64,000 nucleotides of DNA from Escherichia coli (GTDB taxonomy: Bacteria; Pseudomonadota; Gammaproteobacteria; Enterobacterales; Enterobacteriaceae), in assembly GCF_003334335.1 (NCBI RefSeq), contig NZ_QOWQ01000005.1; one strand, given 5' to 3'. A program made the translations under genes and the position numbers. Below the pieces are notes generated by a model. The model was not told the origin of the DNA. It did not search any database and saw only the letters and a program-made list of their open reading frames with translations. How positions within the stretch are numbered: position 1 is the stretch's first letter; each line of letters begins with the position of its first letter. Below are positions 3,029-35,749 of the stretch, piece after piece.

Positions 3029-3193
3029 CCGATGAAGCGGCGGTAGAAGTGCCGCCGCAACAAAGACAAATGCCTGATACGCTTCGCTTATCAAGCCTGC
3101 GTATTGATTCATAATTTATTGAATTTGTAGGGTGAATCGCATCCGGCAGGAAGGTAGGGTAACCTGAAATGGCGGTCTTCTCACTGCCGCCTT

Positions 3194-5976: not shown

Positions 5977-8085
5977 TTAATTTCGGTTTCGGGTGACTTT
6001 AATCACGTCTGGCATCACGCGGATTTTGCGCATGATATTCGCCAGATGCACACGGTCACGAGCGGTCAGACGAATAAAGGCGCTGTAGACGCGACCATCT
6101 TTCTCTTCCGTATTCAAACTTTGAATATTCGAGGTCGTGGTGTTAATTGCCGCCGTCAGGTTTGCCAGCGCACCCTGATGATTGAACATCTCCACCTTGA
6201 TTTCGGTGATGAATTCCTGCGCCGTCTCTTTATCCCATTCCACAGCCATAAACTTCTCTGGCTCTTTCTGGTAGCCACGGATGTTACGGCAGGATTCATG
6301 GTGGATCACCAGACCTTTACCGGGGCTGACGTGGGCGATAATCGGGTCGCCAGGAATAGGGCGGCAGCATTTCGCAAAGGTGATCAGCACGCCATCGGCA
6401 CCTTTAATTGGCAGATGTCCGTGACTTTGGGTTGCCGGTGGAATGGAGGCGTCCCCATGTTGTAGATTTTTCGCGACCACCACGCTCATTGCGTTACCAA
6501 GGCCGATTTCAGCCAGCAGATCGTCAAGCGTTGCCAGCTTCATGCGATCCAGCTCGCGCTGAATATTTTCCTGCGGGATTTCATTCAGCTTACGGCTACC
6601 ACCCAAAGCATGGTTGAGCAGACGACGGCCCAGGCTTACAGAATCATCACGCTTGAGGTTTTTCAGCAACTGACGAATTTTGGCGCGCGCTTTTGAGCTA
6701 ACGACAAAGTTCAGCCACGCGGCATTCGGGCGAGCGCCCGGTGCGGTAATGATTTCAACGGTTTGACCGCTGGTAAGCGGCTGCGACAGCGGGTAAGGCT
6801 GGCGGTCAACGCGTGCGCCCACGCAGGCATGACCGATATCGGTATGCACTGCATAAGCGAAGTCGACGGGCGTTGCACCGGCAGGCAGCTCGACAATGCG
6901 CCCTTCCGGTGTGAAAACGTAAATCTCATCCGGGAAGAGATCGGATTTAACGCTCTCGATAAATTCAAACGAACTACCGGCGCTCTGTTGCAGCTCCAGC
7001 AGGCTTTGCATCCAGCGCTGGGCGCGGATTTGTGCGGTAGTACTGGTTTCGCCGTGCTCTTTATAAGCCCAGTGCGCGGCAACACCCATCTCCGCCATCT
7101 GATCCATATCTTCGGTACGGATCTGGACCTCAACCGGCACGCCGTGCGGGCCAATCATCGAGGTGTGCAAAGACTGATAGCCGTTCGCTTTTGGAATGGC
7201 GATATAGTCTTTCACGCGGCCCGGACGCGGCTTGTACAGGCTGTGCATCTGGCCCAGCACGCGATAACAGGTGTCAGAATCATTGACGATCACGCGGAAA
7301 GCGTAGATGTCCATGATTGAGTGAAAACGCTGCTCTTTGAGCACCATTTTGCAGTAAATCGAATAAAGATGCTTTTCGCGACCACTGACGCGGCACGGTA
7401 TTCCCGCTTCCTGCAAACGCCCTTCGATTTCAGAAAGAATCTTCTGGATCATCTCTTTACGGTTGCCGCGCGCGGCTTTCACCACTTCTTTGATTACGCG
7501 ATAACGGTTGGGATACAGCGCCTCAAAACCCAGCTCTTCGAGTTCGGTTTTAATGTGGTGGATACCTAAACGGTGCGCCAGCGGGCTGTAAATTTCGAGA
7601 GTTTCACGGGCGATGCGGCGACGTTTGTCCGGGCGAAGTGAGCCCAGCGTGCGCATGTTGTGGGTACGGTCGGCAAGTTTGATGAGGATGACGCGGATAT
7701 CCTGCACCATCGCCATAATCATCTTGCGAAAGTTTTCGGCCTGCGCCTCTTTCTTATCGCGGAACTTGAGTTTATCAAGTTTCGACACCCCCTCTACCAG
7801 CTCGGCGACGCTTTTACCAAAAAGCTGTTCCATATCCTGGTAGGTGGCGGGAGTATCTTCAATCACGTCATGCAGCAGCGCCGCCATCAGCGTTTCATAG
7901 TCGAGTTTCATCTCGGCCAGAATGCAGGCAACCGCTACCGGGTGCGTGATATAGGGTTCACCGCTTGAACGTGTTTGCCCCTCGTGAGCATCACGTGCAA
8001 CGAGATACGCCTGCCGCAGACGCTTGATTTGGTCTTCCGGCAGGTAGGTTTGAATCAGTTGATTCAGGCTTTCAAACAGATACAA
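5977..8085 (-). CDS. spoT: Bifunctional (p)ppGpp synthetase/hydrolase SpoT
   Basis: 702-aa ORF with HD-domain and RelA/SpoT synthetase regions; non-ATG (TTG) start as known for spoT. Confidence 0.92.
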   Translation of the reverse strand: MYLFESLNQLIQTYLPEDQIKRLRQAYLVARDAHEGQTRSSGEPYITHPVAVACILAEMKLDYETLMAALLHDVIEDTPATYQDMEQLFGKSVAELVEGVSKLDKLKFRDKKEAQAENFRKMIMAMVQDIRVILIKLADRTHNMRTLGSLRPDKRRRIARETLEIYSPLAHRLGIHHIKTELEELGFEALYPNRYRVIKEVVKAARGNRKEMIQKILSEIEGRLQEAGIPCRVSGREKHLYSIYCKMVLKEQRFHSIMDIYAFRVIVNDSDTCYRVLGQMHSLYKPRPGRVKDYIAIPKANGYQSLHTSMIGPHGVPVEVQIRTEDMDQMAEMGVAAHWAYKEHGETSTTAQIRAQRWMQSLLELQQSAGSSFEFIESVKSDLFPDEIYVFTPEGRIVELPAGATPVDFAYAVHTDIGHACVGARVDRQPYPLSQPLTSGQTVEIITAPGARPNAAWLNFVVSSKARAKIRQLLKNLKRDDSVSLGRRLLNHALGGSRKLNEIPQENIQRELDRMKLATLDDLLAEIGLGNAMSVVVAKNLQHGDASIPPATQSHGHLPIKGADGVLITFAKCCRPIPGDPIIAHVSPGKGLVIHHESCRNIRGYQKEPEKFMAVEWDKETAQEFITEIKVEMFNHQGALANLTAAINTTTSNIQSLNTEEKDGRVYSAFIRLTARDRVHLANIMRKIRVMPDVIKVTRNRN

Positions 8086-8103
8086 GGGCGACCCGCTTTG
8101 TGA

Positions 8104-8379
8104 TTAACGACGACCTTCAGCAATAGCGGTAACGGCTTGTAATTCAGCGGCTTCCTGCTCTTGCTGTTCCTGGCGTTCGCGAACGTCGAGGATCTGGTTG
8201 TTGATCAGACCTTCTTCGATTTCGCGCAGCGCGATTACAGTGGTTTTATCGTTTTCTTCCGGTACCAGCGGATCCTTTCCGCCTACCTGCATCTGACGAG
8301 CGCGACGCGCGGCGACCAGTACCAGGTCAAAACGGTTACCAATTTTCTCTACAGCGTCCTGAACAGTTACGCGTGCCAT
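8104..8379 (-). CDS. rpoZ: RNA polymerase omega subunit
   Basis: 91-aa [32 protein letters not shown], directly upstream of spoT. Confidence 0.92.
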
Positions 8380-8433
8380 ACTTAAAAAGCTCCACAGGTG
8401 AAGAAATGACTGGGCATGATACTGAAATCAGGT

Positions 8434-11611
<3,178 letters not shown>

Positions 11612-19335: not shown

Positions 19336-20145
19336 ATGCCTGAATTACCCGAAGTTGAAACCAGCCGCCGCGGCATAGAACCGCATCTCGTTGGTGCAAC
19401 CATTCTTCATGCAGTGGTGCGCAACGGACGCTTGCGCTGGCCGGTTTCAGAAGAGATCTACCGTTTAAGCGACCAACCAGTGCTTAGCGTGCAGCGGCGG
19501 GCTAAATATCTGCTGCTGGAGCTGCCTGAGGGCTGGATTATCATTCATTTAGGGATGTCTGGCAGCCTGCGCATCCTTCCAGAAGAACTTCCCCCTGAAA
19601 AGCATGACCATGTGGATTTGGTGATGAACAACGGCAAAGTGCTGCGCTACACCGATCCGCGCCGCTTTGGTGCCTGGCTGTGGACCAAAGAGCTGGAAGG
19701 GCATAATGTGCTGGCCCATCTTGGACCGGAGCCGCTTAGCGACGATTTCAATGGTGAGTATCTGCATCAGAAGTGCGCGAAGAAAAAAACGGCGATCAAA
19801 CCGTGGCTGATGGATAACAAGCTGGTGGTAGGCGTAGGGAATATCTATGCCAGCGAATCTCTGTTTGCGGCGGGGATCCATCCGGATCGGCTGGCGTCAT
19901 CACTGTCGCTGGCGGAGTGCGAATTGCTGGCTCGGGTGATTAAAGCGGTGTTGCTGCGTTCGATTGAGCAGGGCGGTACAACGCTAAAAGATTTTCTGCA
20001 AAGCGACGGTAAACCGGGCTATTTCGCGCAGGAATTGCAGGTTTACGGGCGAAAAGGTGAGCCGTGTCGGGTGTGCGGTACGCCGATTGTGGCGACTAAA
20101 CATGCGCAGCGGGCAACGTTTTATTGTCGGCAGTGCCAGAAGTAA
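19336..20145 (+). CDS. mutM: Formamidopyrimidine-DNA glycosylase
   Basis: 269-aa ORF starting MPELPEVE (catalytic Pro2) with C-terminal zinc finger CxxC...CxxC. Confidence 0.93.
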
Positions 20146-20183
20146 TTCATGCGCGCCGGATGGCATACCATCCGGCATAAACG

Positions 20184-21948
<1,765 letters not shown>

Positions 21949-22354
21949 AATAAATAGCTGACTTATGGATGTGCTGGGGATTCTATGTATTTAGCACCGG
22001 GTTTGCCATTACTTTTCCTTTTTTTGACTTAATTAGCCTCTGTTTGAGCTGATCTGCCGCTAGATCTTCATTTTTTTTGTATTTTTATGCGATTCATTGA
22101 ATTTCAGCCAGGATTGCAGCTTTACATCGACAATATCTGGATTCTCGAGTATGCAAAATTTTATCTCTATGATTTTTATAATTAAAACATATTTTGTGTA
22201 TAAAAATCATTCGGGTCGGATTGCTGCGAAAGAAATGATACACTAGCGCGTCAAAGTAAGTGCGTTATCAGTATTCGGGTAGCTGTTGAGCCTGGGGCGG
22301 TAGCGTGCTTTTTTCTGCTTAACTTAACCAGACAATCACACAAAAGAGTCGCTA
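21949..22354. promoter_or_regulatory. Divergent waaA / waaQ control region (AT-rich, long waaQ leader)
   Basis: 406-bp AT-rich intergenic region between divergent operons; contains the ops element listed separately. Confidence 0.55.
22296..22307 (+). promoter_or_regulatory. ops element GGCGGTAGCGTG (RfaH recruitment site, JUMPstart core)
   Basis: Exact GGCGGTAG octamer followed by CGTG, about 50 nt upstream of the waaQ start on the coding strand. Confidence 0.75.
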
Positions 22355-23425
22355 GTGGAAAAGCCATTTCGAAAAATCCTGGTCATAAAGATGCGATATC
22401 ACGGAGATATGTTATTAACTACTCCTGTAATCAGTACACTCAAGCAGAATTATCCCGACGCAAAAATCGATATGCTGCTTTACCAGGATACAATTCCGAT
22501 TTTATCTGAAAACCCAGAAATTAATGCACTCTATGGTATAAGCAATAAAGGTACGGGAACATTCGATAAAATTAAAAATGCACTTTCACTGATAAAAACT
22601 CTGCGTGCGAATAATTACGACCTGGTCATTAATCTTACGGATCAGTGGATGGTGGCCCTGCTGGTACGTTGTTTACCTGCTCGTATGAAAATATCGCAGC
22701 TTTATGGTCATCGGCAGCATGGCATTTGGAAAAAAAGCTTTACACACTTAGCGCCTATACACGGTACACATATTGTTGAGCGTAATTTGTCGGTCCTTGA
22801 GCCATTAGGTATTACCGATTTTTATACTGAAACAACCATGAGTTACGCCGAGGATTGCTGGAAGAAAATGCGCCAGGAATTAGATGCACTGGGCGTGAAA
22901 GATCATTATGTCGTCATCCAGCCGACAGCCAGACAGATATTTAAGTGCTGGGACAACGATAAATTTTCTATGGTTATCGATGCGTTGCAACATCGTGGTT
23001 ATCAGGTTGTGCTGACTTGTGGCCCTTCGGCAGATGATCTCGCTTGCGTAGATGAAATTGCACGAGGCTGCCAAACAAAACCTATTACCGGCCTTGCCGG
23101 TAAAACACGTTTTCCTGAACTGGGCGCATTAATTGATCATGCAGTGCTCTTTATTGGTGTGGATTCTGCGCCGGGGCATATTGCAGCGGCTGTGAAGACG
23201 CCAGTTATTAGCCTGTTTGGGGCCACTGATCATGTATTCTGGCGTCCATGGACCGAGAATATTATTCAGTTCTGGGCGGGGAATTATCAAAAAATGCCTA
23301 CCCGGCACGAACTTGACCGCAACAAAAAATATCTTTCTGTTATTCCAGCGGAAGATGTCATTGCCGCTACGGAAAAGCTGTTGCCAGAAGATGCACCTTC
23401 AGCTGACAGGAATGCGCAATTATGA
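22355..23425 (+). CDS. waaQ: LPS heptosyltransferase III (GT9)
   Basis: GTG start with AAAGAG RBS; N-terminal KILVIKMRYHGDML aligns with the WaaC/WaaF N-terminal motifs, so the start must lie upstream of Met13. Confidence 0.8.
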   Translation: MEKPFRKILVIKMRYHGDMLLTTPVISTLKQNYPDAKIDMLLYQDTIPILSENPEINALYGISNKGTGTFDKIKNALSLIKTLRANNYDLVINLTDQWMVALLVRCLPARMKISQLYGHRQHGIWKKSFTHLAPIHGTHIVERNLSVLEPLGITDFYTETTMSYAEDCWKKMRQELDALGVKDHYVVIQPTARQIFKCWDNDKFSMVIDALQHRGYQVVLTCGPSADDLACVDEIARGCQTKPITGLAGKTRFPELGALIDHAVLFIGVDSAPGHIAAAVKTPVISLFGATDHVFWRPWTENIIQFWAGNYQKMPTRHELDRNKKYLSVIPAEDVIAATEKLLPEDAPSADRNAQL

Positions 23426-24546
23426 TCGTGGCATTTTGCTTATATAAATATTTTCCATTTGGTGGGCTACAGCGTGACTTTATGCGTATTGCCTCAACAG
23501 TTGCCGCACGGGGCCACCATGTTCGGGTATATACACAGTCGTGGGAAGGCGATTGCCCGGAAGCATTTGAGCTTATTCGCGTACCGGTTAAATCCCATAC
23601 TAACCATGGACGTAATGCAGAATATTATGCCTGGGTTCAAAACCATCTGAAGGCACATCCCGCTGATCGCGTTGTTGGCTTTAATAAGATGCCTAGGCTG
23701 GATGTTTATTTTGCCGCCGATGTCTGTTATGCCGAGAAAGTGGCGCAAGAAAAGGGATTTTTCTATCGTTTAACATCGCGCTATCGCCATTATGCTGCAT
23801 TCGAGCGAGCGACTTTCGAACATGGTAAATCGACGAAACTTATGATGTTGACCGATAAGCAAATCGCCGATTTTCAGAAGCATTACCAAACTGAACCAGA
23901 ACGTTTTCAAATTCTTCCCCCTGGTATCTATCCTGACAGAAAATACAACGCGCAAATCCCAAACAGTCGTGAAATTTATCGCCAGAAAAATGGCATCACT
24001 GAACAACAAAACTTATTGCTGCAGGTTGGTTCAGATTTTGGTCGTAAAGGTGTGGATCGCTCAATTGAAGCTTTGGCATCGTTACCAGAATCGTTACGCC
24101 ATAATACGTTGTTGTTTGTTGTTGGCCAGGATAAACCGCGTAAATTTGAAGTGCTGGCAGAAAAACTCGGTGTGCGTAGTAAAGTGCATTTCTTTTCCGG
24201 GCGGAATGATGTGTCTGAATTAATGGCAGCCGCTGATTTATTAATGCATCCCGCTTATCAGGAGGCTGCAGGTATTGTTCTCCTTGAGGCAATTGCCGCG
24301 GGATTACCTGTGTTGACGACTGCGGTATGCGGATACGCACACTATATCACAGATGCTAATTGTGGAACGGTCATCGCTGAACCTTTCTCCCAGGAACAAT
24401 TAAATGACGTTTTACGTAAAGCGTTAACTCAATCTCCATTGCGCATGGCCTGGGCGGAGAATGCTCGGTATTACGCCGATACTCAGGATTTATACAGCCT
24501 GCCGGAGAAAGCGGCAGATATCATTACAGGTGGTTTAGATGGTTGA
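23422..24546 (+). CDS. waaG: LPS core glucosyltransferase I (GT4)
   Basis: 374-aa ORF; ATGA start/stop overlap with waaQ. Confidence 0.9.
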
Positions 24547-25336
24547 ATTAGAAGAGCCACTTGCCACACTCTGGCGTGGTAAAGATGCCTTTGCAGAAGT
24601 TAAAAAACTGAATGGCGAGGTCTTCCGTGAACTGGAGACGCGTCGCACATTACGCTTTGAACTGGCCGGCAAAAGTTATTTCCTCAAATGGCACAAAGGG
24701 ACGACCCTAAAGGAGATTATAAAAAATCTGCTCTCATTGCGGATGCCCGTTTTAGGTGCAGACAGAGAGTGGCACGCTATTCATCGACTGCATGATGTCG
24801 GTGTTGATACGATGCACGGAATAGGATTTGGTGAAAAAGGGTTAAATCCATTAACTCGCACATCATTTATTATTACCGAAGATCTCACTCCCACAATTAG
24901 CCTTGAAGATTATTGTGCAGATTGGGCGGTCAACCCGCCTGATGTACATATTAAGCGTATGCTGATCGCGCGTGTGGCAACCATGGTGCGCAAAATGCAT
25001 GCAGCAGGGATTAATCACCGTGATTGTTATATCTGCCACTTTTTACTCCATTTGCCATTTACTGGCCGGGAAGATGAATTAAAAATTTCGGTTATCGATC
25101 TGCACCGGGCACAGATACGTGCAAAAGTACCACGTCGTTGGCGGGATAAAGATTTGATTGGTTTATATTTCTCATCAATGAATATTGGTCTGACGCAGAG
25201 AGATATCTGGCGATTTATGAAGGTTTATTTTGGGATGCCTTTACGCGATATTTATAGACTTGAGATTGATTTACTTAAAAAGGCAAGGATTAAAGCAGGA
25301 AAAATAGAAGCAAGAACAATAAGAAAAAACTTGTAA
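24539..25336 (+). CDS. waaP: LPS core heptose(I) kinase
   Basis: 265-aa ORF with kinase-like catalytic motifs ([11 protein letters not shown]); 8-nt overlap with waaG. Confidence 0.9.
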
Positions 25337-25368
25337 ATAGTATTTTATTACAAAAAGGGATTCTAAAA

Positions 25369-26349
25369 TTGTTGAAATATAGAAACTTCGTTGCTAAGAA
25401 GAAAAATTTATACCAAAACGAAGTGTCGTATGTTAAAAATTTACATATTGCACTATGCTTTGACCGTGAATTCATAATGCCAGCGGGTGTTGCATTATAT
25501 TCAATTATATCCAACAATAGACATATTAACCTTCATTTTCACCTTCTTATATCAGGCATAGAAGAAAAGGAGTGTTCAGCTTTTTACGAACTAGAAGGTC
25601 CTAATACATCAATATCTGTATATTATATAACTGATAAATTTGACATTAATCCGGATACATTAGTTCTTGGTATTCCTTTATCAACATGTTTACGTTTTTT
25701 AATCCCAGAAGTTATTGATGATAAAATAAATAAGATACTTTATCTTGACTGTGATGTCATATGTAATGGTCCTTTAGATGAACTGGTTGATTATAATTTA
25801 AATGCTGATATTGCATGTGTAATTCCAGATTCGCCAGAAATGCAAGAACGTGTAAAAAAATTAGACTATGGCATTGAGTTTATTAATTATTTTAATGCCG
25901 GGGTTATGTTTATTAATACCAGCGAATGGAAAAAAAATAATATAACACAAAAAGCGTTAGAAATGATCAACAGTGGAAAAGTATATAGGTATGCAGATCA
26001 GGATGTGCTCAATATTTTACTTAATGGACGAGTGCATTACCTTGATAAGAAGTACAATAATAAGACAACATTGTCAGTACGATGTGATGAAGAACAAAAA
26101 AACTTGCCCAACACAATTATAATGCATTATGTTACCCAGAATAAACCATGGTACAAAATATTTAGAGCACAAAATTTTGATCATTATTTTTCAAATTCTC
26201 CTTGGAAGAACCATAAAAGAAATCTAGCTCCATCATCAAGTGAGATTAGGTTAAAGTCTAAAGTTTTTTGGCTAGAAGGAAAATATTGTAAAGCCATTTC
26301 TTATTATTATAAGTATTTACTTGTTAAATTATTTGGCTTAAAGATTTAG
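25369..26349 (+). CDS. LPS core glycosyltransferase, GT8-like, at the waaS position
   Basis: 326-aa ORF from TTG start; YLDCDV (DxD), FNAGVMFIN and DQDVLN motifs shared with the two downstream GT8 paralogs; very low GC. Confidence 0.6.
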   Translation: MLKYRNFVAKKKNLYQNEVSYVKNLHIALCFDREFIMPAGVALYSIISNNRHINLHFHLLISGIEEKECSAFYELEGPNTSISVYYITDKFDINPDTLVLGIPLSTCLRFLIPEVIDDKINKILYLDCDVICNGPLDELVDYNLNADIACVIPDSPEMQERVKKLDYGIEFINYFNAGVMFINTSEWKKNNITQKALEMINSGKVYRYADQDVLNILLNGRVHYLDKKYNNKTTLSVRCDEEQKNLPNTIIMHYVTQNKPWYKIFRAQNFDHYFSNSPWKNHKRNLAPSSSEIRLKSKVFWLEGKYCKAISYYYKYLLVKLFGLKI

Positions 26350-26362
26350 CTGGAATGAAATT

Positions 26363-27442
26363 ATGAAAATAGCCTTTATTGGCGAAGCTGTTTCTGGATT
26401 TGGCGGCATGGAAACAGTCATTCGTGATGTTATTACTACCTTCAGGCAACAACATATCCAAAGTGAAATTTTTTTCTTTTGTCGTAATGACAAAATGGAT
26501 AAGGGATGGCTGGAAGGTATTAAGTACTCGTGTTCATTTTCCAATATTCGCTTAGGTTTTTTGCGTCGCGCGAAACATATTCATGCTTTAAGCAAATGGC
26601 TTCATGATTATCAGCCAGATGTTGTTATTTGTATTGACGTGATCTCGTGTTTGTATGCGGCCAAAGCTCGTAAAAAATCGGGGATTGATGTACCTGTATT
26701 TTCATGGCCGCATTTTTCTTTAGATCATAAAAAACATGCCGAATATATCACCTGTGCCGACTATCATTTAGCCATCAGCTCTGGTATTAAACAGCAAATG
26801 ATTAGCCGGGGTGTACCAGAATCGACAATAAACGTTATTTTTAATCCCGTTGAGGCGAAAAATTCAGTCATTCCTGCACCCGGGGAAGGCGAAACGGCAA
26901 CATTCATTTATGTTGGGCGCATGAAATTTGAAGGCCAAAAGCGCGTAAAAGATCTGCTTGATGGCTTATCACAAGTGCAAGGTGACTGGAAACTTCATGT
27001 ATTGGGAGATGGCTCCGATTTCGAAAAATGCCAGGCTTATGGTAGAGGATTAAATATTGATGATCGAATTGTCTGGTATGGTTGGCAACAACATCCCTGG
27101 AAATTAGTTCAGCAAGATATTAAAAAAGTGAGTGCATTATTACTCACGTCATCTTTTGAAGGTTTCCCAATGACTCTACTTGAAGCCTTGTCGTGGGGGA
27201 TCCCTTGTATCAGTGCAGATTGTGTCTCCGGGCCTGTTGATATCATTCAGCCTGATGTTAATGGTCATTTATATCAACCGGGGGATATGACCGGTTTTGT
27301 TGCTCTTCTCAATAAATACATAGCCGGTGAAATTCACATCGCACATGAAAAAATTCCGGCGTCGATCGATAAATTTTATCAACCGAAATATTACGACAGA
27401 TTGCAAAAGATAATTATTTCTGTTATTTCCCGGAGGAAATAA
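26363..27442 (+). CDS. waaB: LPS core alpha-1,6-galactosyltransferase (GT4)
   Basis: 359-aa ORF MKIAFIGEAVSGFGGMETV..., GT4 C-terminal EGFPMTLLEA motif. Confidence 0.8.
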   Translation: MKIAFIGEAVSGFGGMETVIRDVITTFRQQHIQSEIFFFCRNDKMDKGWLEGIKYSCSFSNIRLGFLRRAKHIHALSKWLHDYQPDVVICIDVISCLYAAKARKKSGIDVPVFSWPHFSLDHKKHAEYITCADYHLAISSGIKQQMISRGVPESTINVIFNPVEAKNSVIPAPGEGETATFIYVGRMKFEGQKRVKDLLDGLSQVQGDWKLHVLGDGSDFEKCQAYGRGLNIDDRIVWYGWQQHPWKLVQQDIKKVSALLLTSSFEGFPMTLLEALSWGIPCISADCVSGPVDIIQPDVNGHLYQPGDMTGFVALLNKYIAGEIHIAHEKIPASIDKFYQPKYYDRLQKIIISVISRRK

Positions 27443-28461
27443 TGCAGCAGGTTTTTTTCCAGGAGACTGAGTTTCTCAATTCGGTTATTGATTATAATCA
27501 TAAAATAGAAGCAGAAAATCTTTGTCTGGATATTGCTTATGGGACTGACAAAAATTTTCTTTTTGGATGCGGAATATCGATTGCTTCAATATTAAAATAT
27601 AATGAAGGAAATCAATTATGCTTTCATATTTTTACTGATTATTTCGGTGATGACGATCGCAAATATTTTGATGCCCTGGCCAGGCAATATAAAACAAGAA
27701 TTAAGATATATTTAATTAATGGTGATCGACTCCGTTCATTACCCTGCACCAAGAACTGGACTCATGCTATTTATTTTCGTTTTGTTATCGCCGATTACTT
27801 TTTTAATAAAGCACCCAAAGTTCTTTATCTGGATGCAGATATTATTTGTCAGGGAACTATAGAACCACTTATCAATTACACGTTTTCTGAACATACAGTC
27901 GCAATGGTTGTTACAGAAGGACAAAAAGACTGGTGGGCAAAACGTGCTCATTCGTTAGGTGTTGCTGGGATTGCTAATGGTTACTTTAACTCCGGTTTTT
28001 TACTGATTAATACTAATCAATGGACGAATGAGCGGGTTTCTGCACGGGCCATTGCAATGTTAAGTGATCCAGAGATAGTCAAAAAAATAACACATCCTGA
28101 TCAGGATGTATTAAATATGTTATTGGCAGACAAACTTGTTTATGCTGATATTAAATATAACACTCAGTTTAGTTTAAATTATCAACTAAAAGAAAGTTTT
28201 AAAAACCCAGTAACTAACGATACAGTTTTTATTCATTATATTGGTCCAACTAAACCCTGGCATGACTGGGCCTGGGATTATCCAATATCACAAGCTTTTA
28301 TGGCGGCAAAAAATGCTTCACCATGGAAGGATACTGCGTTATTGAAACCGGTTAATAGTAATCAATTAAGATACAGTGCTAAACATATGTTGAAAAAAAA
28401 GCAATATATCAAAGGATTTGGCAACTATCTTTTGTATTTTATAAAAAAGCTAAAGCATTAA
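27442..28461 (+). CDS. waaI: LPS core alpha-1,3-glycosyltransferase (GT8)
   Basis: 339-aa ORF; GT8 motifs YLDADIIC, FNSGFLLIN, DQDVLNMLL; 1-nt overlap with the waaB stop. Confidence 0.75.
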   Translation: MQQVFFQETEFLNSVIDYNHKIEAENLCLDIAYGTDKNFLFGCGISIASILKYNEGNQLCFHIFTDYFGDDDRKYFDALARQYKTRIKIYLINGDRLRSLPCTKNWTHAIYFRFVIADYFFNKAPKVLYLDADIICQGTIEPLINYTFSEHTVAMVVTEGQKDWWAKRAHSLGVAGIANGYFNSGFLLINTNQWTNERVSARAIAMLSDPEIVKKITHPDQDVLNMLLADKLVYADIKYNTQFSLNYQLKESFKNPVTNDTVFIHYIGPTKPWHDWAWDYPISQAFMAAKNASPWKDTALLKPVNSNQLRYSAKHMLKKKQYIKGFGNYLLYFIKKLKH

Positions 28462-28624
28462 TACTGATAATCTATACTCTAAATAATTCGAGTTGCAGGA
28501 CAAAAAGCCAGTGGCGTTTTGAGGAACGCTTGCGTTGGCCCTGAAATGCCGAGTAACTCGCCGATGCAGCACATGCAACTTGAAGTATAACGAGTATATA
28601 AAGTAATGATATAAGGATAGCCTT

Positions 28625-29641
28625 GTGAACTCATTTCCTGCCATAGAGATAGATAAAGTTAAAGCCTGGGATTTTAGGCTTATTGATGAAAATACTGCTG
28701 AAAGTTTAAATGTTGCCTATGGTGTCGATTCCAATTATCTTGATGGTGTAGGTGTTTCCATTACTTCAATTGTCATTAATAATCGACATGTTAATCTTGA
28801 TTTTTATATTATTGCTGATGTTTATAACGACGATTTCTTTCAAAAAGTTGAGAAACTTGCTGAGCAATACCAATTAAGAATCACACTTTATAGAATAAAT
28901 ACTGATAATCTTCAGTGCCTGCCTTGTACACAAGTCTGGTCAAGAGCAATGTACTTCCGTTTATTTGCTTTTCAATTATTGGGAGTAACACTTAATCGTT
29001 TGCTTTATCTTGATGCCGATGTAGTTTGTAAGGGAAATATTAGTCAACTATTGCATTTAGAGTTTAATGGAGCGGTGGCTGCAGTAGTCAGGGATGTAGA
29101 CCCAATGCAGGAAAAGGCGGTAGTCAGATTATCTGATCCTGAACTTCGGGGGCAGTATTTTAATTCTGGTGTCGTTTACTTAGACCTAAAAAAATGGACA
29201 GAAGCAAAACTAACCGAAAAAGCACTGTCTATTCTTATGAGTAAAGATAGTATTTATAAGTATCCTGACCAGGACGTTATGAATGTCCTACTAAAAGGGA
29301 TGACAATATTCCTGCCACGTGAGTTCAATACTATATATACAATAAAAAGTGAGTTAAAAGATAAAACGCATCAAAAATATAAAGAGTTGATAAAAGAGGA
29401 TACTCTTCTTATTCATTATACTGGGGCCACCAAGCCGTGGCACAAATGGGCAATTTATCCATCGGTAAAATACTATAAAATAGCTTTAGAAAGATCCCCC
29501 TGGAAAGATGACTCACCACGAGATGCAAAATCAATTATTGAATTCAAAAAAAGATATAAACATCTGTTAGTGCAACATCATTATATCTCAGGACTCATTG
29601 CAGGAGTGTGTTATCTTTGCCGAAAATATTACCGTAAATAA
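28625..29641 (+). CDS. waaJ: LPS core alpha-1,2-glycosyltransferase (GT8)
   Basis: 338-aa ORF from GTG start with AAGGA RBS; GT8 motifs YLDADVVC, FNSGVVYLD, DQDVMNVLL. Confidence 0.75.
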   Translation: MNSFPAIEIDKVKAWDFRLIDENTAESLNVAYGVDSNYLDGVGVSITSIVINNRHVNLDFYIIADVYNDDFFQKVEKLAEQYQLRITLYRINTDNLQCLPCTQVWSRAMYFRLFAFQLLGVTLNRLLYLDADVVCKGNISQLLHLEFNGAVAAVVRDVDPMQEKAVVRLSDPELRGQYFNSGVVYLDLKKWTEAKLTEKALSILMSKDSIYKYPDQDVMNVLLKGMTIFLPREFNTIYTIKSELKDKTHQKYKELIKEDTLLIHYTGATKPWHKWAIYPSVKYYKIALERSPWKDDSPRDAKSIIEFKKRYKHLLVQHHYISGLIAGVCYLCRKYYRK

Positions 29642-29658
29642 CATTTAACTGGTTTAAC

Positions 29659-30357
29659 ATGATTCAGAAGAATAAAATCAAAGATTTAGTTGTTTTTACC
29701 GATGAAAATAACTCAAAGTATCTCAATGTATTAAATGACTTTCTTTCTTATGATATTAATATCATCAAAGTTTTTCGTTCTATAGATGATACAAAAGTCA
29801 TGCTTATTGATACCGATTACGGTAAATTGATACTTAAAGTTTTTTCGCCTAAAGTAAAACGCAACGAACGTTTCTTTAAATCTCTTTTAAAGGGAGATTA
29901 TTATGAACGCCTTTTTGAGCATACTCAAAAAGTGCGTAACGAGGGGCTACATTCTCTCAATGATTTTTATTTGTTGGCAGAACGGAAAACATTACGTTTT
30001 GTCCATACTTATATCATGCTTATCGAATATATCGATGGCGTAGAGTTGTGTGATATCCCCGATATTGATGAAACTTTAAAAAATAAAATTCAACAATCAA
30101 TTCGTTCATTACACGAACACGGTATGGTATCTGGTGATCCTCACCGCGGTAATTTTATTATTGAAAATGGTGAAGTACGCATTATTGATCTTTCAGGAAA
30201 ACGGGCATCTGCACAACGTAAAGCGAAAGATCGTATTGATTTAGAGCGACATTATGGTATTAAGAATGAGGTTAAAGATCTCGGTTATTATCTTTTAGTT
30301 TATCGTAAAAAAATACGTAATCTTATGCGGCGTTTGAAAGGGAAGCCAGCACGATAA
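29659..30357 (+). CDS. waaY: LPS core heptose(II) kinase
   Basis: 232-aa ORF; small kinase-like protein at the position WaaY occupies in this cluster. Confidence 0.75.
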   Translation: MIQKNKIKDLVVFTDENNSKYLNVLNDFLSYDINIIKVFRSIDDTKVMLIDTDYGKLILKVFSPKVKRNERFFKSLLKGDYYERLFEHTQKVRNEGLHSLNDFYLLAERKTLRFVHTYIMLIEYIDGVELCDIPDIDETLKNKIQQSIRSLHEHGMVSGDPHRGNFIIENGEVRIIDLSGKRASAQRKAKDRIDLERHYGIKNEVKDLGYYLLVYRKKIRNLMRRLKGKPAR

Positions 30358-30428
30358 AGTAAAAGTCTTACATTTAAACGTCTTCGTCAGGACATTTCTA
30401 TGCGGAGTTCTTATTTCACAGGTTTATC

Positions 30429-31238
30429 ATGAAGAATATTAGATACATTGACAAAAAAGATGTTGAAAACCTGATAGAAAGTAAAACGTCTGATGATGTT
30501 ATTATTTTTCTTTCCGGCCCCGCATCGCAAAAAACACCATTGTCAGTGCTGCAGACAAGGGATGTTATTGCTGTCAATGGTTCTGCACAATATCTATTAA
30601 GTCATAATATTATTCCCTATATTTATGTACTTACCGATGTTCGCTTTTTACATCAACGGCGTGATGATTTTTATAAATTTAGCCAGAGAAGTCGTTATAC
30701 CATCGTAAATGTTGACGTTTATGAACATGCTTCTGAAGAAGATAAGCGGTACATCCTTCAAAACTGCCTGGTACTACGTTCATTTTACCGCAGAGAAAAA
30801 GGTGGATTGATCAAGAAGATCAAGTTTAATATTTTGAGCCGAATTCATAAAGAGCTCCTGATCTCTGTACCTTTTTCTAAAAAAGGTCGTCTGGTTGGCT
30901 TTTGCAAGGATATTAACCTCGGTTATTGTTCATGCCATACCGTTGCTTTTGCTGCAATCCAAATAGCCTATTCGCTGAAGTATGCTCGTATTATCTGTTC
31001 AGGCCTTGATTTAACGGGTAGCTGTTCGCGTTTCTATGATGAAGATAAGAATCCTATGCCCTCAGAGTTGACTCGGGATTTATTCAAAATTTTACCATTT
31101 TTCCGTTTTATGCGTGAAAATATAGAAGATATCAATATTTATAATTTATCCGACGATACTGCAATTCAATATGATATTATTCCCTATATGAAAATATCCG
31201 AAATTGAAGAGCCGTGTGTTTATGAAAAAATAAGCTAA
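30429..31238 (+). CDS. waaZ: LPS core biosynthesis protein WaaZ (KdoIII-associated)
   Basis: 269-aa ORF at the WaaZ position in the WaaY-WaaZ-WaaK order; assignment by position and size. Confidence 0.65.
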   Translation: MKNIRYIDKKDVENLIESKTSDDVIIFLSGPASQKTPLSVLQTRDVIAVNGSAQYLLSHNIIPYIYVLTDVRFLHQRRDDFYKFSQRSRYTIVNVDVYEHASEEDKRYILQNCLVLRSFYRREKGGLIKKIKFNILSRIHKELLISVPFSKKGRLVGFCKDINLGYCSCHTVAFAAIQIAYSLKYARIICSGLDLTGSCSRFYDEDKNPMPSELTRDLFKILPFFRFMRENIEDINIYNLSDDTAIQYDIIPYMKISEIEEPCVYEKIS

Positions 31239-31290
31239 TATTTTATATGTGTTTATTACGTGTTATAAATTATATTGGAGTTGGCTAATA

Positions 31291-32433
31291 ATGATTAAAA
31301 AAATAATATTTACCGTCACACCAATATTTTCTATACCGCCAAAAGGAGCTGCAGCGGTTGAAACATGGATTTATCAGGTCGCAAAAAGACTTTCGATTCC
31401 AGTAACTATCGCCTGTATTCGAAACGAAGGTTACCCAACCTACACAAAAGTAAATGATCACTGTGATATTCACTACATTGGTTTTAGTCGAGTCTATAAA
31501 CGACTTTTCCAAAAGTGGACTCGACTTGATCCTGTGCCATATTCTCAGCGTATTTTAAATACCCAACCTAAAAACACTGATCCGAAAGACTCTGTTATTG
31601 TTATCCACAATAGCATGAAGCTGTATAAACAGATTCGTAGCAGAAGCCCTCACGCGCAGCTAGTTATGCATCTTCATAATGCTTTCGAGCCAGGTGAGTT
31701 AGACAAAAATGCAAAGATAATTGTTCCTAGCCAGTTTCTTTTCGATTTCTATTCGGAAAAAATGCCTGATGCAAATATTGCTATTGTGCCTAATGGTTTT
31801 TGTTCTGAATCGTATGAACAAAATAATACTGAAGATTTGAGGCAGAAACTGAACATTGATGCAAATGATACCGTGTTATTATTTGCAGGAAGGATATCAC
31901 CAGATAAAGGTTGCCTGATGCTTATGGAGGCTTTTAATCAGCTGAATAAGATACAAGATAACCTCAAACTGGTGATTGTCGGAGATCCTTTTGCCAGTAA
32001 AAAAGGCGAAAAAGCTGAATATCAGAAAAAAGTTCTGGATGCAGCGAAAGCTATTGGAGCGCAATGCATTATGGCGGGTGGACAGCCTCCAGAGCAGATG
32101 CATAACTATTACCGTTTAGCAGATTTAGTTGTTGTTCCTTCTCAGGTAGAAGAAGCTTTTTGTATGGTAGCTGTTGAAGCGATGGCGGCAGGTAAACCAG
32201 TGCTTGCCAGTCAAAAAGGTGGAATTAGTGAGTTTGTTCTGGAAGGAATTACAGGCTATCACCTTGCAGAGCCTATGACATCTGAAAGTATTCTCGCGGA
32301 TATTAAGCGCGTTTTGGCGGATGCTGACAGAGCTCAAATTGCTAAAAATGCCCGAAATTTTGTTTTCTCAAAATATAGCTGGGAACATGTTACTCAGCGT
32401 TTTGAAGCACAAATACAAGACTGGTTTGGTTAA
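31291..32433 (+). CDS. waaK: LPS core GlcNAc transferase-like glycosyltransferase (GT4), Salmonella/R2-type
   Basis: ORF 31249..32433 trimmed to ATG 31291 (GGAG RBS at 31277-31280), 380 aa; GT4 fold; size fits WaaK rather than the K-12 WaaU length I recall. Confidence 0.65.
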   Translation: MIKKIIFTVTPIFSIPPKGAAAVETWIYQVAKRLSIPVTIACIRNEGYPTYTKVNDHCDIHYIGFSRVYKRLFQKWTRLDPVPYSQRILNTQPKNTDPKDSVIVIHNSMKLYKQIRSRSPHAQLVMHLHNAFEPGELDKNAKIIVPSQFLFDFYSEKMPDANIAIVPNGFCSESYEQNNTEDLRQKLNIDANDTVLLFAGRISPDKGCLMLMEAFNQLNKIQDNLKLVIVGDPFASKKGEKAEYQKKVLDAAKAIGAQCIMAGGQPPEQMHNYYRLADLVVVPSQVEEAFCMVAVEAMAAGKPVLASQKGGISEFVLEGITGYHLAEPMTSESILADIKRVLADADRAQIAKNARNFVFSKYSWEHVTQRFEAQIQDWFG

Positions 32434-32452
32434 AAATTATTGGATTTGAAGA

Positions 32453-32488
32453 GCCTGCCTGAACTTAATGTCAGGCAGGCTTTTTTTT
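32453..32488. terminator. Bidirectional terminator between convergent waaK and waaL
   Basis: Perfect 10-bp stem gcctgcctga / tcaggcaggc with 8-nt loop and T8 run; the waaL stop codon lies within the T-run. Confidence 0.7.
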
Positions 32489-33704
32489 ATTTATTCCGCA
32501 TTGCTAACAGTAAACCAACAATCAAGCCAATTGGTTTGAGATCAACTTCCTCGAAGTTACCTCGAATAATATAAAAGCTTACAAGCGTTAAAAATAGTAG
32601 TAATTGACCATTATAAGGAGTGACGACAACTGTTTTAAACGTTGCATTAGCTGTCTCTTTGATAATAGAGCCATACAGATAAAGTAAAGCGAGTAGTCCA
32701 GCCAAACCCGCTGCAAACCAAATTGACAAAACAACGTTGTGTGGCCCAATGGATTGCCTGAACTTCCATGACGGAAAATCTACAACACGCTTATTATATA
32801 TTGCATGGTAAATATCATCGCCGTAGCCATATCCCTTAAGAGGATTTTCCATAATTAATGTCCACGCCGTACCTTGAGTACCATTGGTATAGCGATAAGA
32901 ACTGTCGGTCTGTTGAAGTTTATAAATAAGCCTGTCTTTACCAGCATGATCACCTTTATAGGTAAATACACCCACTGCGGCAACAGAAATAACGATGGAA
33001 GTCAGCATCAATAATTTCCACTGACGATTTAAGATTAACCATAGCAGAGTCACTATGAATACTGCCAGCCATGCACCACGAGACAGCGTTCCTAATAGCA
33101 GAAATAAGAAAACTGCACTAAAAATTACGAATGCTATTTTATAAGAGGTTTTCTTGATAAGCCAAAGGTTTAATAATGCTGGAAACAGAAACACCATTGA
33201 ATCGGAAATACTACGGTGTTCATAGGTGGAAAATGGCATTATTCCTTTATTATAATCCTGAATATAAAGAATAAGTTCAACAAGACAACGTAAGCCAAGT
33301 CCGGTAACTAATGAGTATAGTACAATTTTACCAATGCTTTCATTATCTTCATCTTTTAATAATGCAGGTATAAGTAAACTATAGGCCAAAAATCCTTTAA
33401 GTACCGTATTACTGAATTCTTTAAAACTGATTTTCAGATCAGGTGATATAAAAGTAGCATATAAAAGAATGAGTGATAGTGCCAGGACACTATAAAAAAG
33501 ATTATTTTTATAGAGTACTTTAAATGTTCCCGGAGCACGAGAAACTTGATAGATTACCGTAATAATCATTAGTATAGATATGATGTGTTTATAACGGGTT
33601 ATACCATCAAGGAAAAAGGTTGCAATAAAGAGGAATACCAACGCTTTATTCCAGTACGGTTTCCACTTTTCTTTATTACGTAGCGCCAGCGAGGCTGTTA
33701 ACAT
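32487..33704 (-). CDS. waaL: O-antigen ligase
   Basis: 405-aa polytopic membrane ORF MLTASLALRNKEKWKPYWNKALVFLF...; N-terminus resembles the Salmonella/R2-type WaaL I recall, not the K-12 WaaL. Confidence 0.85.
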   Translation of the reverse strand: MLTASLALRNKEKWKPYWNKALVFLFIATFFLDGITRYKHIISILMIITVIYQVSRAPGTFKVLYKNNLFYSVLALSLILLYATFISPDLKISFKEFSNTVLKGFLAYSLLIPALLKDEDNESIGKIVLYSLVTGLGLRCLVELILYIQDYNKGIMPFSTYEHRSISDSMVFLFPALLNLWLIKKTSYKIAFVIFSAVFLFLLLGTLSRGAWLAVFIVTLLWLILNRQWKLLMLTSIVISVAAVGVFTYKGDHAGKDRLIYKLQQTDSSYRYTNGTQGTAWTLIMENPLKGYGYGDDIYHAIYNKRVVDFPSWKFRQSIGPHNVVLSIWFAAGLAGLLALLYLYGSIIKETANATFKTVVVTPYNGQLLLFLTLVSFYIIRGNFEEVDLKPIGLIVGLLLAMRNK

Positions 33705-33742
33705 TGCTTCTCCACCATCTTAAATAATATATAACGTATTAA

Positions 33743-34699
33743 TCAGGAATTGATTTTATTAAATACCGTTTCTGCAGTCAGATGAGCAAGATCTTTATCT
33801 GGTGCCCTACAAACCACCTGATTCTTCCCATATCCGCCAATTAATCCCGGATCGGTTGGTCCATAAACCGTGATATTCGGTCGATCCAGTGCTGCAGTTA
33901 AATGACTTAACCCAGTGTCTACCGATACCACGAATTTCGCTCCGGCCAGCACACGGGCAACACCTTCCAGACTCATCTTCGGCAATACTTCAACATAAGC
34001 AAATCCTTCCGCCAGTCGTTTCGCCCGTTTTTCCTCATGCGGCGCACCCCACGGAAGTTTAATGCGAATCCCTGAATCTGCCAGTAAACCAATCAATTCT
34101 CGCCAGTGTTCTTCCGGCCAGTGTTTATCATCACGGGTCGTCGCATGAAGAAATACGGCATATTCGCCAGCATCTGTAGGCAGGTTCGTCAGAAAATGCT
34201 GTGCGATAGCATAATCGCCCTGGGTTTGCGGTTTGCTATAGCCCAGACTTTTGGCAAAAAGTTCGCGGATGCGTTCTACGGCGTGCTGCTGTTTTGCAAT
34301 ATGATGTTTACGATTGTAAAACAGGCTGGCTAAAGGTTCGCGAGCGGTTTGCCAGTCCATTCCATGCTTTACGCCATGCGCCAGACGCGTCACCAGCGCC
34401 GCGCTTTTTACCAGCCCCTGAGCATCGATAACTGCGTCATAGTTCTCTGCTTGTAGCGCTTCACGAAACGCTTTGCGTTCAGCTTTTATGGGGGCCGAGA
34501 ACCAGGCTTTACGCCAGCGACGTATTGCCACAGGAATAACTCGCTCAACGGCGGCGTGCCAGGAAGGAATCTGTGCGAACCCTTCTTCCACCACCCAGTC
34601 AAACTTAATCCCTGGGATTGCCTGCTGGGCATCAGTGAGTGCGGGCAACGTATGGAGAACATCGCCCATCGACGATGTTTTAACGATCAAAACCCGCAT
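33743..34699 (-). CDS. waaC: LPS heptosyltransferase I (GT9)
   Basis: 318-aa ORF MRVLIVKTSSMGDVLHTLPALTDA. Confidence 0.9.
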   Translation of the reverse strand: MRVLIVKTSSMGDVLHTLPALTDAQQAIPGIKFDWVVEEGFAQIPSWHAAVERVIPVAIRRWRKAWFSAPIKAERKAFREALQAENYDAVIDAQGLVKSAALVTRLAHGVKHGMDWQTAREPLASLFYNRKHHIAKQQHAVERIRELFAKSLGYSKPQTQGDYAIAQHFLTNLPTDAGEYAVFLHATTRDDKHWPEEHWRELIGLLADSGIRIKLPWGAPHEEKRAKRLAEGFAYVEVLPKMSLEGVARVLAGAKFVVSVDTGLSHLTAALDRPNITVYGPTDPGLIGGYGKNQVVCRAPDKDLAHLTAETVFNKINS

Positions 34700-34702
34700 C
34701 CG

Positions 34703-35749
34703 TCAGGCTTCCTCTTGTAACAATAGAGAGTTGAGTTCTTCCAGCACGCGCTGGGGAGTAATGTCGATCAAGCTCTGGTGATAACCTTCTGCGGCGTCGC
34801 CTTTGCGTACTTTGTGATAGCCGGTAATCAGGCGGATCACGCGCGCTTTATGGGATAGCGGCGGTGTGAAGTCCGGGCTACTCGGACCATACAGGGCAAC
34901 CAGCGGACGATTGAGCGCCGCCGCAACGTGCATCAGGCCAGAATCGTTAGTGACAATGGCTTTACAGGCTGCAATCAGGATAACCGCTTGATCAAGCTGT
35001 GTTTCCCCCGCCAGGTTCCGGCACCATGCCTGCTGCTCGGTATTTAAAGCGGCAAGAATCTCATTGCCCGCTTCATGATCTTTCGCCGAGCCAAACAGAA
35101 CCACTTGATAACCTTCATCAATCAGTTGCTTTGCCAGTTCCGCATAGTGGTAGTGTGGCCAGCGTTTTGCCGGACCAAACTCCGCACCCGGGCAAAAACC
35201 AATCATTGGACGTTCTGATGAAAGCGAAAATTGATTACAGGTATATGATTTTTCACCTTCGCTCACCTGCAACTGCGGCCATAACAATGGCTGCGGCAGA
35301 TCTTGTGCGGTACGCATAATACCTTTGTCATAGGCCAGCGCCACATAGCGTTCCACCATCAGCGGCCAGGCTTCTTTATCCAGCACACGCACATCGTTGA
35401 GTAAACCGTAGCGCATTTCGCCGCGCCAGCCGGTGCGATGAGGAATACCCGCGAAGAAAGGCACTAATGCGGATTTGAAGGAGTTGGGTAAAACGTAGGC
35501 GCGGTCGTAACGTTTTTCGCGCAGGCTATGACCCAGCTTGCGGCGTTCGCCAATTTCCAGCGCCCCGTGACCAAGCGGCATAGGAATGGCTTCGTTAACT
35601 TCCGGCATCCGCGATAATAATGGACGGCACCATGCCGGTGCCATCACGTCGATTATCGCCTGGGGATAGCGCGCCTGGAGCGTGCGATAGAGACTTTGCG
35701 ACATCATCATGTCGCCAACCCATGACGGGCCGATCACCAATATTTTCAT
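34703..35749 (-). CDS. waaF: LPS heptosyltransferase II (GT9)
   Basis: 348-aa ORF MKILVIGPSWVGDMMMSQSLYRTL. Confidence 0.9.
   Translation of the reverse strand: MKILVIGPSWVGDMMMSQSLYRTLQARYPQAIIDVMAPAWCRPLLSRMPEVNEAIPMPLGHGALEIGERRKLGHSLREKRYDRAYVLPNSFKSALVPFFAGIPHRTGWRGEMRYGLLNDVRVLDKEAWPLMVERYVALAYDKGIMRTAQDLPQPLLWPQLQVSEGEKSYTCNQFSLSSERPMIGFCPGAEFGPAKRWPHYHYAELAKQLIDEGYQVVLFGSAKDHEAGNEILAALNTEQQAWCRNLAGETQLDQAVILIAACKAIVTNDSGLMHVAAALNRPLVALYGPSSPDFTPPLSHKARVIRLITGYHKVRKGDAAEGYHQSLIDITPQRVLEELNSLLLQEEA

Follow-up and report, generated by a model that had tools for sequence, protein, structure and literature searches.

wabA of the Escherichia coli R2 core locus, a GT8 glycosyltransferase gene with a TTG start and a putative accessory role in lipopolysaccharide core assembly

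The wabA gene and the R2 core locus

The closest described counterpart of the gene analysed here is wabA of the R2-type lipopolysaccharide (LPS) core locus of Escherichia coli, which is placed between waaB and waaP in the LPSTyper paper, a typing study from 2025 (PMC13293308). The R2 genes are tabulated there in the order waaR, waaO, waaB, wabA, waaP, waaG, waaQ, the core type is defined by a "hybrid" pattern with Salmonella-like genes, and frequencies among E. coli of 8.15% for R2 and 18.4% for K-12 are given. As for WaaS and WabA, that study states merely that they "could" introduce additional modifications. A full-text literature search for wabA in the LPS context returned only this paper and its preprint. 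The corresponding slot in K-12 holds waaS, encoding a rhamnosyltransferase that acts on Kdo II/III in WaaZ-dependent glycoforms (PMC6358824, PMC6286764). Further points of comparison are the GT8 enzymes of LPS core synthesis and, at the structural level, LgtC from Neisseria meningitidis.

The window analysed is a contiguous stretch of 64,000 nucleotides, and its ORF list contains a TTG-initiated reading frame of 326 codons plus stop, which together with the relevant neighbours is arranged as follows:

22269..22307 (+): JUMPstart element with ops (GGCGGTAG at 22296), 5' of waaQ; Rfam RF01707, 53.1 bits, and ops match
24539..25336 (+): waaP, ending 32 nt upstream of wabA; as annotated in the identical locus
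25369..26349 (+): wabA coding sequence; ORF list, translation, Pfam, and RefSeq CDS WP_000922462.1 at identical coordinates
26363..27442 (+): waaB, GT4 alpha-1,6-galactosyltransferase, downstream neighbour, 13-nt gap; annotation and NCBIfam NF007396, 592.9 bits
27442..28461 (+): waaO, GT8 paralogue; annotation and NF011718, 572 bits; 28% identity to WabA
28625..29641 (+): waaR/rfaJ, GT8 paralogue; annotation; 29% identity to WabA

It is virtually certain that this reading frame is wabA, a GT8 gene with a TTG start in an R2 core-type waa locus. The gene is flanked by waaP and waaB, its locus has waaK and waaL of the R2 type, and it is carried by 503–505 of 5,426 complete E. coli genomes (9.3%). 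It thereby agrees with the R2 wabA of the typing paper in species, locus type, waaP–waaB position and, closely, in frequency, and no difference between the two was found; the name wabA itself rests on the gene order in that paper (PMC13293308). In the RefSeq annotation, the M217 order is waaA / rfaQ-rfaG-rfaP-[GT8]-waaB-waaO-rfaJ-rfaY-waaZ-[GlcNAc transferase] / rfaL-rfaC-rfaF, and the 1.1-kb wabA stretch is 100% identical in many E. coli chromosomes. The gene is thus already annotated and named. Heinrichs et al. (1998, J Biol Chem 273:8849) reportedly gave the original description of wabA.

Across the locus, the encoded proteins are 88–98% identical to those of K-12, except for wabA, the last transferase and waaL. 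In K-12, waaS takes the slot of wabA and waaU that of waaK; waaK and waaL of the locus are without a K-12 counterpart and are 73% and 65% identical to the Salmonella versions. The GC content of wabA, 29.7%, is the lowest in the locus; that of the window is 48.8%. On the antisense strand over wabA, the ORF list holds no frame of at least 80 amino acids.

The JUMPstart element with ops 5' of waaQ, in combination with the short gaps of 32 and 13 nt that flank wabA, places the gene within the RfaH-dependent waaQ operon, of which it is the fourth gene. JUMPstart is the only RNA family detected by Rfam over 20000–35000. The ops 8-mer GGCGGTAG occurs in seven copies in the window (3039, 11399, 22296, 29116 and 54893 on the plus strand; 36078 and 50649 on the minus strand), where roughly two would be expected by chance, and only the copy at 22296 lies within a recognised JUMPstart element. 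The gap between waaO and waaR (28462–28624) spans 163 nt here; in K-12 and one further E. coli locus it measures 39 nt. At its ends, the additional stretch of about 124 nt carries inverted repeats, TATACTC...GAGTATA and GAGTTGCAGG...TGCAACTTGAAG; it is present as a single copy in the window, is located in the waaR leader, and resembles an ERIC/IRU intergenic repeat. In K-12, waaR is a target of the RybB sRNA. For waaK, the longest ORF begins at GTG 31249 (394 amino acids), and the RefSeq start corresponds to 31291 (380 amino acids).

Domain structure and comparison with other GT8 enzymes

The domains and motifs identified in WabA map to the following positions:

25444..26157 (+): GT8 catalytic domain, residues 26–263; PF01501 E 1.6e-49, aligns to LgtC 1G9R/1GA8 with E 7.7e-17
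25747..25755 (+): DxD motif D127-C-D129 (metal/UDP-sugar); invariant in an 18-sequence alignment, pairs with LgtC YLDIDV
25996..26004 (+): D210-Q211-D212, the LgtC DQD active-site motif; invariant, pairs with LgtC QDQDILN
26125..26151 (+): H253-Y-V-T-Q-N-K259-P-W261, the LgtC HYxGxxKPW motif; pairs with LgtC SHYCGPAKPW
26167..26328 (+): GT8 C-terminal domain, residues 267–320, basic and aromatic; PF08437 E 6.5e-06

The Glyco_transf_8 match covers model positions 1–251 of 253, and the Pfam E-values for this domain and for Glyco_transf_8C exclude a chance match. The translation contains ILYLDCDV, YFNAGVMFIN and YADQDVLN, and the original prediction that motifs of the DxD, FNAGVMFIN and DQDVLN type are common to three GT8 proteins of the locus is borne out by alignment with WaaO and WaaR/RfaJ. 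In the alignment of 18 sequences, which comprises WabA orthologues and paralogues, D127, D129, D210, Q211, D212, H253, K259, P260 and W261 are invariant, and Tyr254 of the HYxGxxKPW motif is likewise without variation. At the level of sequence this confirms the 25369–26349 product as a member of CAZy family GT8 and Pfam PF01501 with all LgtC-type catalytic motifs intact. The prediction had also named two downstream GT8 genes; the family holds, and these genes are not directly adjacent to wabA, as the GT4 gene waaB intervenes.

LgtC is the structural archetype of bacterial GT8 enzymes. Residues 35–264 of WabA can be aligned with the LgtC structures (PDB codes 1G9R, 1GA8 and 1SS9; E about 6e-17), with matching motifs YLDIDV/YLDCDV, DQDILN/DQDVLN and HYCGPAKPW/HYVTQNKPW, the active-site motifs being those around LgtC Q189, H244 and K250, and a GT-A fold can be predicted for WabA. 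LgtC acts on the lactose of lipooligosaccharide and, unlike WabA, is devoid of the enterobacterial C-terminal domain of PF08437 type. The GT8 C-terminal region is said to have a membrane role, going by published work on WaaJ, and by analogy residues 267–320 of WabA are presumed to form a membrane-association region.

The enzymes most similar in architecture are WaaO, WaaR(J), WaaI, WaaJ, WaaT and WaaW, of which WaaT, WaaW, WaaI and WaaJ were taken from the R1 and R3 loci for comparison. As in WabA, PF01501 is combined with PF08437 in a protein of about 330 amino acids with all catalytic motifs, the gene is part of the waaQ operon, and a membrane-peripheral retaining mechanism is presumably common to all. 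In contrast to these enzymes, WabA has no canonical core residue attributed to it. The composition of the R2 core determined by mass spectrometry is Glc3-GlcNAc-Gal-Hep3-Kdo. In the R2 outer core, the three Glc residues are attributed to WaaG, WaaO and WaaR, Gal to WaaB, and GlcNAc to WaaK. Since these five canonical sugars are already assigned, a product of WabA would most likely be a non-stoichiometric decoration.

A different possibility is that WabA is a redundant or alternative transferase of the outer-core chain, which would use a different sugar, e.g., Gal for Glc, at the step of WaaO or WaaR and so produce a second main-chain glycoform. The shared domain architecture and operon with WaaO and WaaR are compatible with such a role, as is the fact that HexII differs among related loci of the K-12/R2 and Salmonella cores, being either Glc or Gal. 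Nevertheless, WabA is only 25–31% identical to each of WaaO, WaaR/J, WaaI, WaaJ, WaaT and WaaW (E 6e-36 against WaaO and 5e-40 against WaaR/RfaJ), and forms a clade with its orthologues apart from all of them. Against NF011718, the WaaO/WaaI equivalog model that WaaO of the locus matches with 572 bits, WabA reaches 183.6 bits, which is below the 461-bit cut-off, and R2 core mass spectra give a single hexose composition. Taken together, an alternative chain transferase is unlikely, and orthology to the characterised HexII/HexIII transferases of R1, R3, K-12 and Salmonella was rejected on the grounds of the low identity and the separate clade.

Orthologues, selection and the start codon

At the waaP-proximal site, orthologues with 58–81% identity occur in Citrobacter, Salmonella, Pseudocitrobacter and an E. 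coli locus of K-12-like type. The gene follows directly after waaP in all four: in Citrobacter the locus ends in a GT9 waaU-like gene, in Salmonella it ends in waaK, and in Pseudocitrobacter waaB is absent. The E. coli allele with 81% protein identity, a third wabA allele, belongs to GCA_050206055.1 (8001–8981 of the extracted locus), where the K-12-like locus ends with waaU and waaZ is a 283-residue form; this combination of wabA and waaU differs from both the standard K-12 and the R2 arrangement. The intergeneric divergence of WabA (55–64%) matches that of waaB, waaO, waaR, waaY and waaZ (55–70%). Between orthologues of the four genera, dN/dS is 0.08–0.20, which indicates a functional protein under purifying selection.

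Broken copies also occur. In Salmonella enterica, wabA lies between waaP and waaB and is intact with 326 codons in some serovars and in subsp. salamae. One S. enterica genome carries a 28-residue in-frame deletion (8001–8897 of the extracted locus L005), and many Salmonella proteins of 137–316 residues are annotated as "partial" on long contigs, which suggests that gene decay is ongoing in this genus. A class of alleles with 90–95% identity is represented in 17 complete E. coli genomes. E. coli WEC (NZ_CP114592.1) has an allele of this class, 94% identical, in which a run of A about 196 nt from the gene start is longer by one A, so that wabA is split into two annotated fragments (3070–4051 of the extracted locus L003); this frameshift may be real or an assembly error. 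Because the gene is broken in part of Salmonella and in one E. coli strain, wabA is dispensable.

The truncated and deleted copies in Salmonella, the frameshift in WEC, the TTG start, and the fact that no canonical R2 core sugar requires WabA could all be explained if wabA were a functionless relic, poorly translated and turning into a pseudogene. This would be hard to reconcile with the low dN/dS across four genera, the invariance of every catalytic residue, and the constant length of 326 amino acids among E. coli, Citrobacter and Salmonella. Moreover, 485 of 503 E. coli copies are at least 99% identical and annotated as intact. We conclude that a relic is distinctly unlikely.

In tblastn searches of a phage collection, no match of genuine phage origin exceeded about 33% identity to WabA; a match of 61% was discarded because it derives from a Salmonella Infantis chromosomal contig filed among the phages. 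A GT8 protein of the WabA clade with 45% identity is encoded in Hafnia paralvei CP014031.2 (9001–9969 of the extracted locus L011), where it closes a P2-like cluster of tail genes and adjoins those for the tail fibre and tail-fibre assembly, near a gene resembling an S24-peptidase repressor. This protein is a candidate LPS transferase of lysogenic conversion.

Two elements define the proposed start of translation of wabA:

25356..25360 (+): Shine-Dalgarno-like AGGGA with an 8-nt spacer to TTG; AGGG/AAGGG equally spaced in Citrobacter and Salmonella and in further E. coli alleles
25369..25371 (+): TTG start codon; PGAP annotation, with TTG, ATG or GTG at the homologous codon of orthologues

The frame is open from an in-frame stop at 25291, and the candidates before Met37 are TTG 25369, TTG 25372, GTG 25423 and a few non-canonical ATT/ATA codons. 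The first in-frame ATG is codon 37 (25477), 11 residues into the Pfam domain and 3' of the near-invariant Leu25 and Asp32, which upholds the expectation that the true start lies upstream of it. The original prediction had chosen TTG 25369 with AGGGA as ribosome-binding site 9 nt upstream, a distance that applies when counted from the last G. PGAP arrives at the same TTG, and both the NTG codon and the AGGG/AAGGG sequence, 8–9 nt 5' of the start, are conserved in every compared orthologue. At this position, the 94% and 81% E. coli alleles and Citrobacter sp. NCU1 have TTG, one genome of S. enterica subsp. enterica has ATG, and subsp. salamae has GTG. A start codon that varies between TTG, ATG and GTG across five lineages is strong comparative evidence for initiation at 25369. 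Orthologues started in this way are also 326 residues long and have a common N-terminal F/Y-V/I-x-x-K...L-F pattern, and the N-terminal 24 residues are weakly constrained (dN 0.26 versus dS 0.35 for the closest pair). TTG 25369 is a weak start behind a moderate Shine-Dalgarno sequence.

Initiation elsewhere, at TTG 25372, GTG 25423 or ATG 25477, is very unlikely. TTG 25372 comes directly after TTG 25369 and, with a spacer of 11 nt, could still be served by the Shine-Dalgarno sequence, but its homologous codon is TTA, ATA or TCT in orthologues, where the first codon is always NTG, and it is thus not a conserved start. Neither GTG 25423, which is not conserved, nor any of the ATT/ATA codons before Met37 has a Shine-Dalgarno sequence. 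An internal ATG was picked by the gene caller in S. salamae (7893–8873 of the extracted locus L009), even though the reading frame extends upstream as far as the GTG; in WabA, a start at Met37 would remove the first β-strand of the GT8 domain together with Leu25 and Asp32. For annotation purposes, the comparison thus solidly backs the TTG start, and it also shows that some gene callers shorten the Salmonella orthologue to an internal ATG.

WaaS and the possible function of WabA

As for wabA, waaS in K-12 is located between waaP and waaB in the same operon, has a very low GC content, and is accessory in the sense that the main core chain does not need either enzyme. The segment that differs between the two loci is well delimited:

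25247..26360 (+): segment differing from K-12, comprising wabA and the last ~90 nt of waaP, which are divergent; junction alignments and per-gene identities

Close homology to K-12 stops about 90 nt before the waaP stop codon and restarts at the waaB ATG. The two proteins belong to different families and are without sequence similarity. Although the common slot and the AT-richness of both genes (29.7% and 26.8% GC) might suggest that WabA is merely a diverged R2 version of WaaS with the same Kdo-region rhamnosyltransferase activity, this can be dismissed almost entirely, since BLASTP gives no significant alignment of WabA with K-12 WaaS (best E 1.8), K-12 WaaS matches the NCBIfam model NF053598 "WaaS/CpsH" at 179 bits where WabA has no match and hits the WaaO/WaaI GT8 model alone, Pfam puts WabA in GT8, and the genome sets differ (1,031 of 5,426 complete E. 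coli genomes for waaS, 503 for wabA). Homology to WaaS is accordingly ruled out, and the question of WaaS versus another transferase, previously considered undecidable from sequence, is settled.

The gene does occupy the waaS position, between waaP and waaB, as had been proposed, but the suggestion that it is the replacement probably has the direction reversed, as four genera carry the GT8 gene there. With wabA in the slot of four genera and diverging in step with its neighbours, K-12 waaS looks like a newcomer, and wabA like an old resident of this locus family.

The sequence analysis shows the identity of the gene, its family, the intact catalytic motifs, the position of the start codon, purifying selection and synteny, and from these we infer donor, acceptor, stoichiometry and physiological role of WabA mainly by analogy with its paralogues. 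WabA would be a retaining enzyme of the GT-A type, with a C-terminal domain of the kind usual among GT8 enzymes of the enterobacterial LPS core, and would be located at the cytoplasmic face of the inner membrane. A UDP-hexose would be bound by means of the DxD motif and Mn2+, and an alpha-linked hexose transferred to the nascent lipid A-core before the latter is flipped by MsbA. We predict that the product is a non-stoichiometric alpha-hexose that is absent from the textbook R2 structure. Because orthologues have been kept in loci without waaB, and in loci that end in either waaK or waaU, the acceptor is probably in the core part shared by all wabA loci, i.e., Glc I to III, heptose or the Kdo region, and is probably neither the Gal branch nor the terminal residue. 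No biochemical or genetic evidence of WabA activity was found in the readable literature, and no extra hexose is reported in published R2 core mass spectra. The complete reading, R2 wabA with a TTG start encoding a GT8 enzyme for accessory alpha-hexose transfer, appears likely to us, and the accessory alpha-hexosylation as such fairly likely.

A more far-reaching scenario would combine these elements, such that WabA is the ancestral occupant of the waaP–waaB slot in Escherichia, Salmonella and Citrobacter, waaS a later non-homologous replacement, and the activity of WabA the addition of an undescribed non-stoichiometric alpha-hexose to the conserved core. We consider this combination possible but rather doubtful. 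It may further be speculated that the hidden hexose resides on the Kdo region of WaaZ-dependent glycoforms; a Kdo-linked product would be lost in mild-acid core preparations, which leaves room for a WaaS-like role of WabA. The R2 inner core may carry a Gal on Kdo, which is not used as evidence here. If a Kdo-region hexose were true, WabA would be a functional counterpart of WaaS and affect phage or host recognition, and the occurrence of GT8 relatives beside prophage tail-fibre genes would fit a role in phage recognition.

The R2 core type is present in about 9% of complete E. coli genomes, and wabA is a conserved glycosyltransferase gene of this locus without an assigned product. Should WabA attach a hidden sugar, the R2 core structure as published would be incomplete, as would the structures of some Salmonella and Citrobacter cores. 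Such a sugar would matter for vaccines and antibodies directed at the core, and for the receptor specificity of phages.
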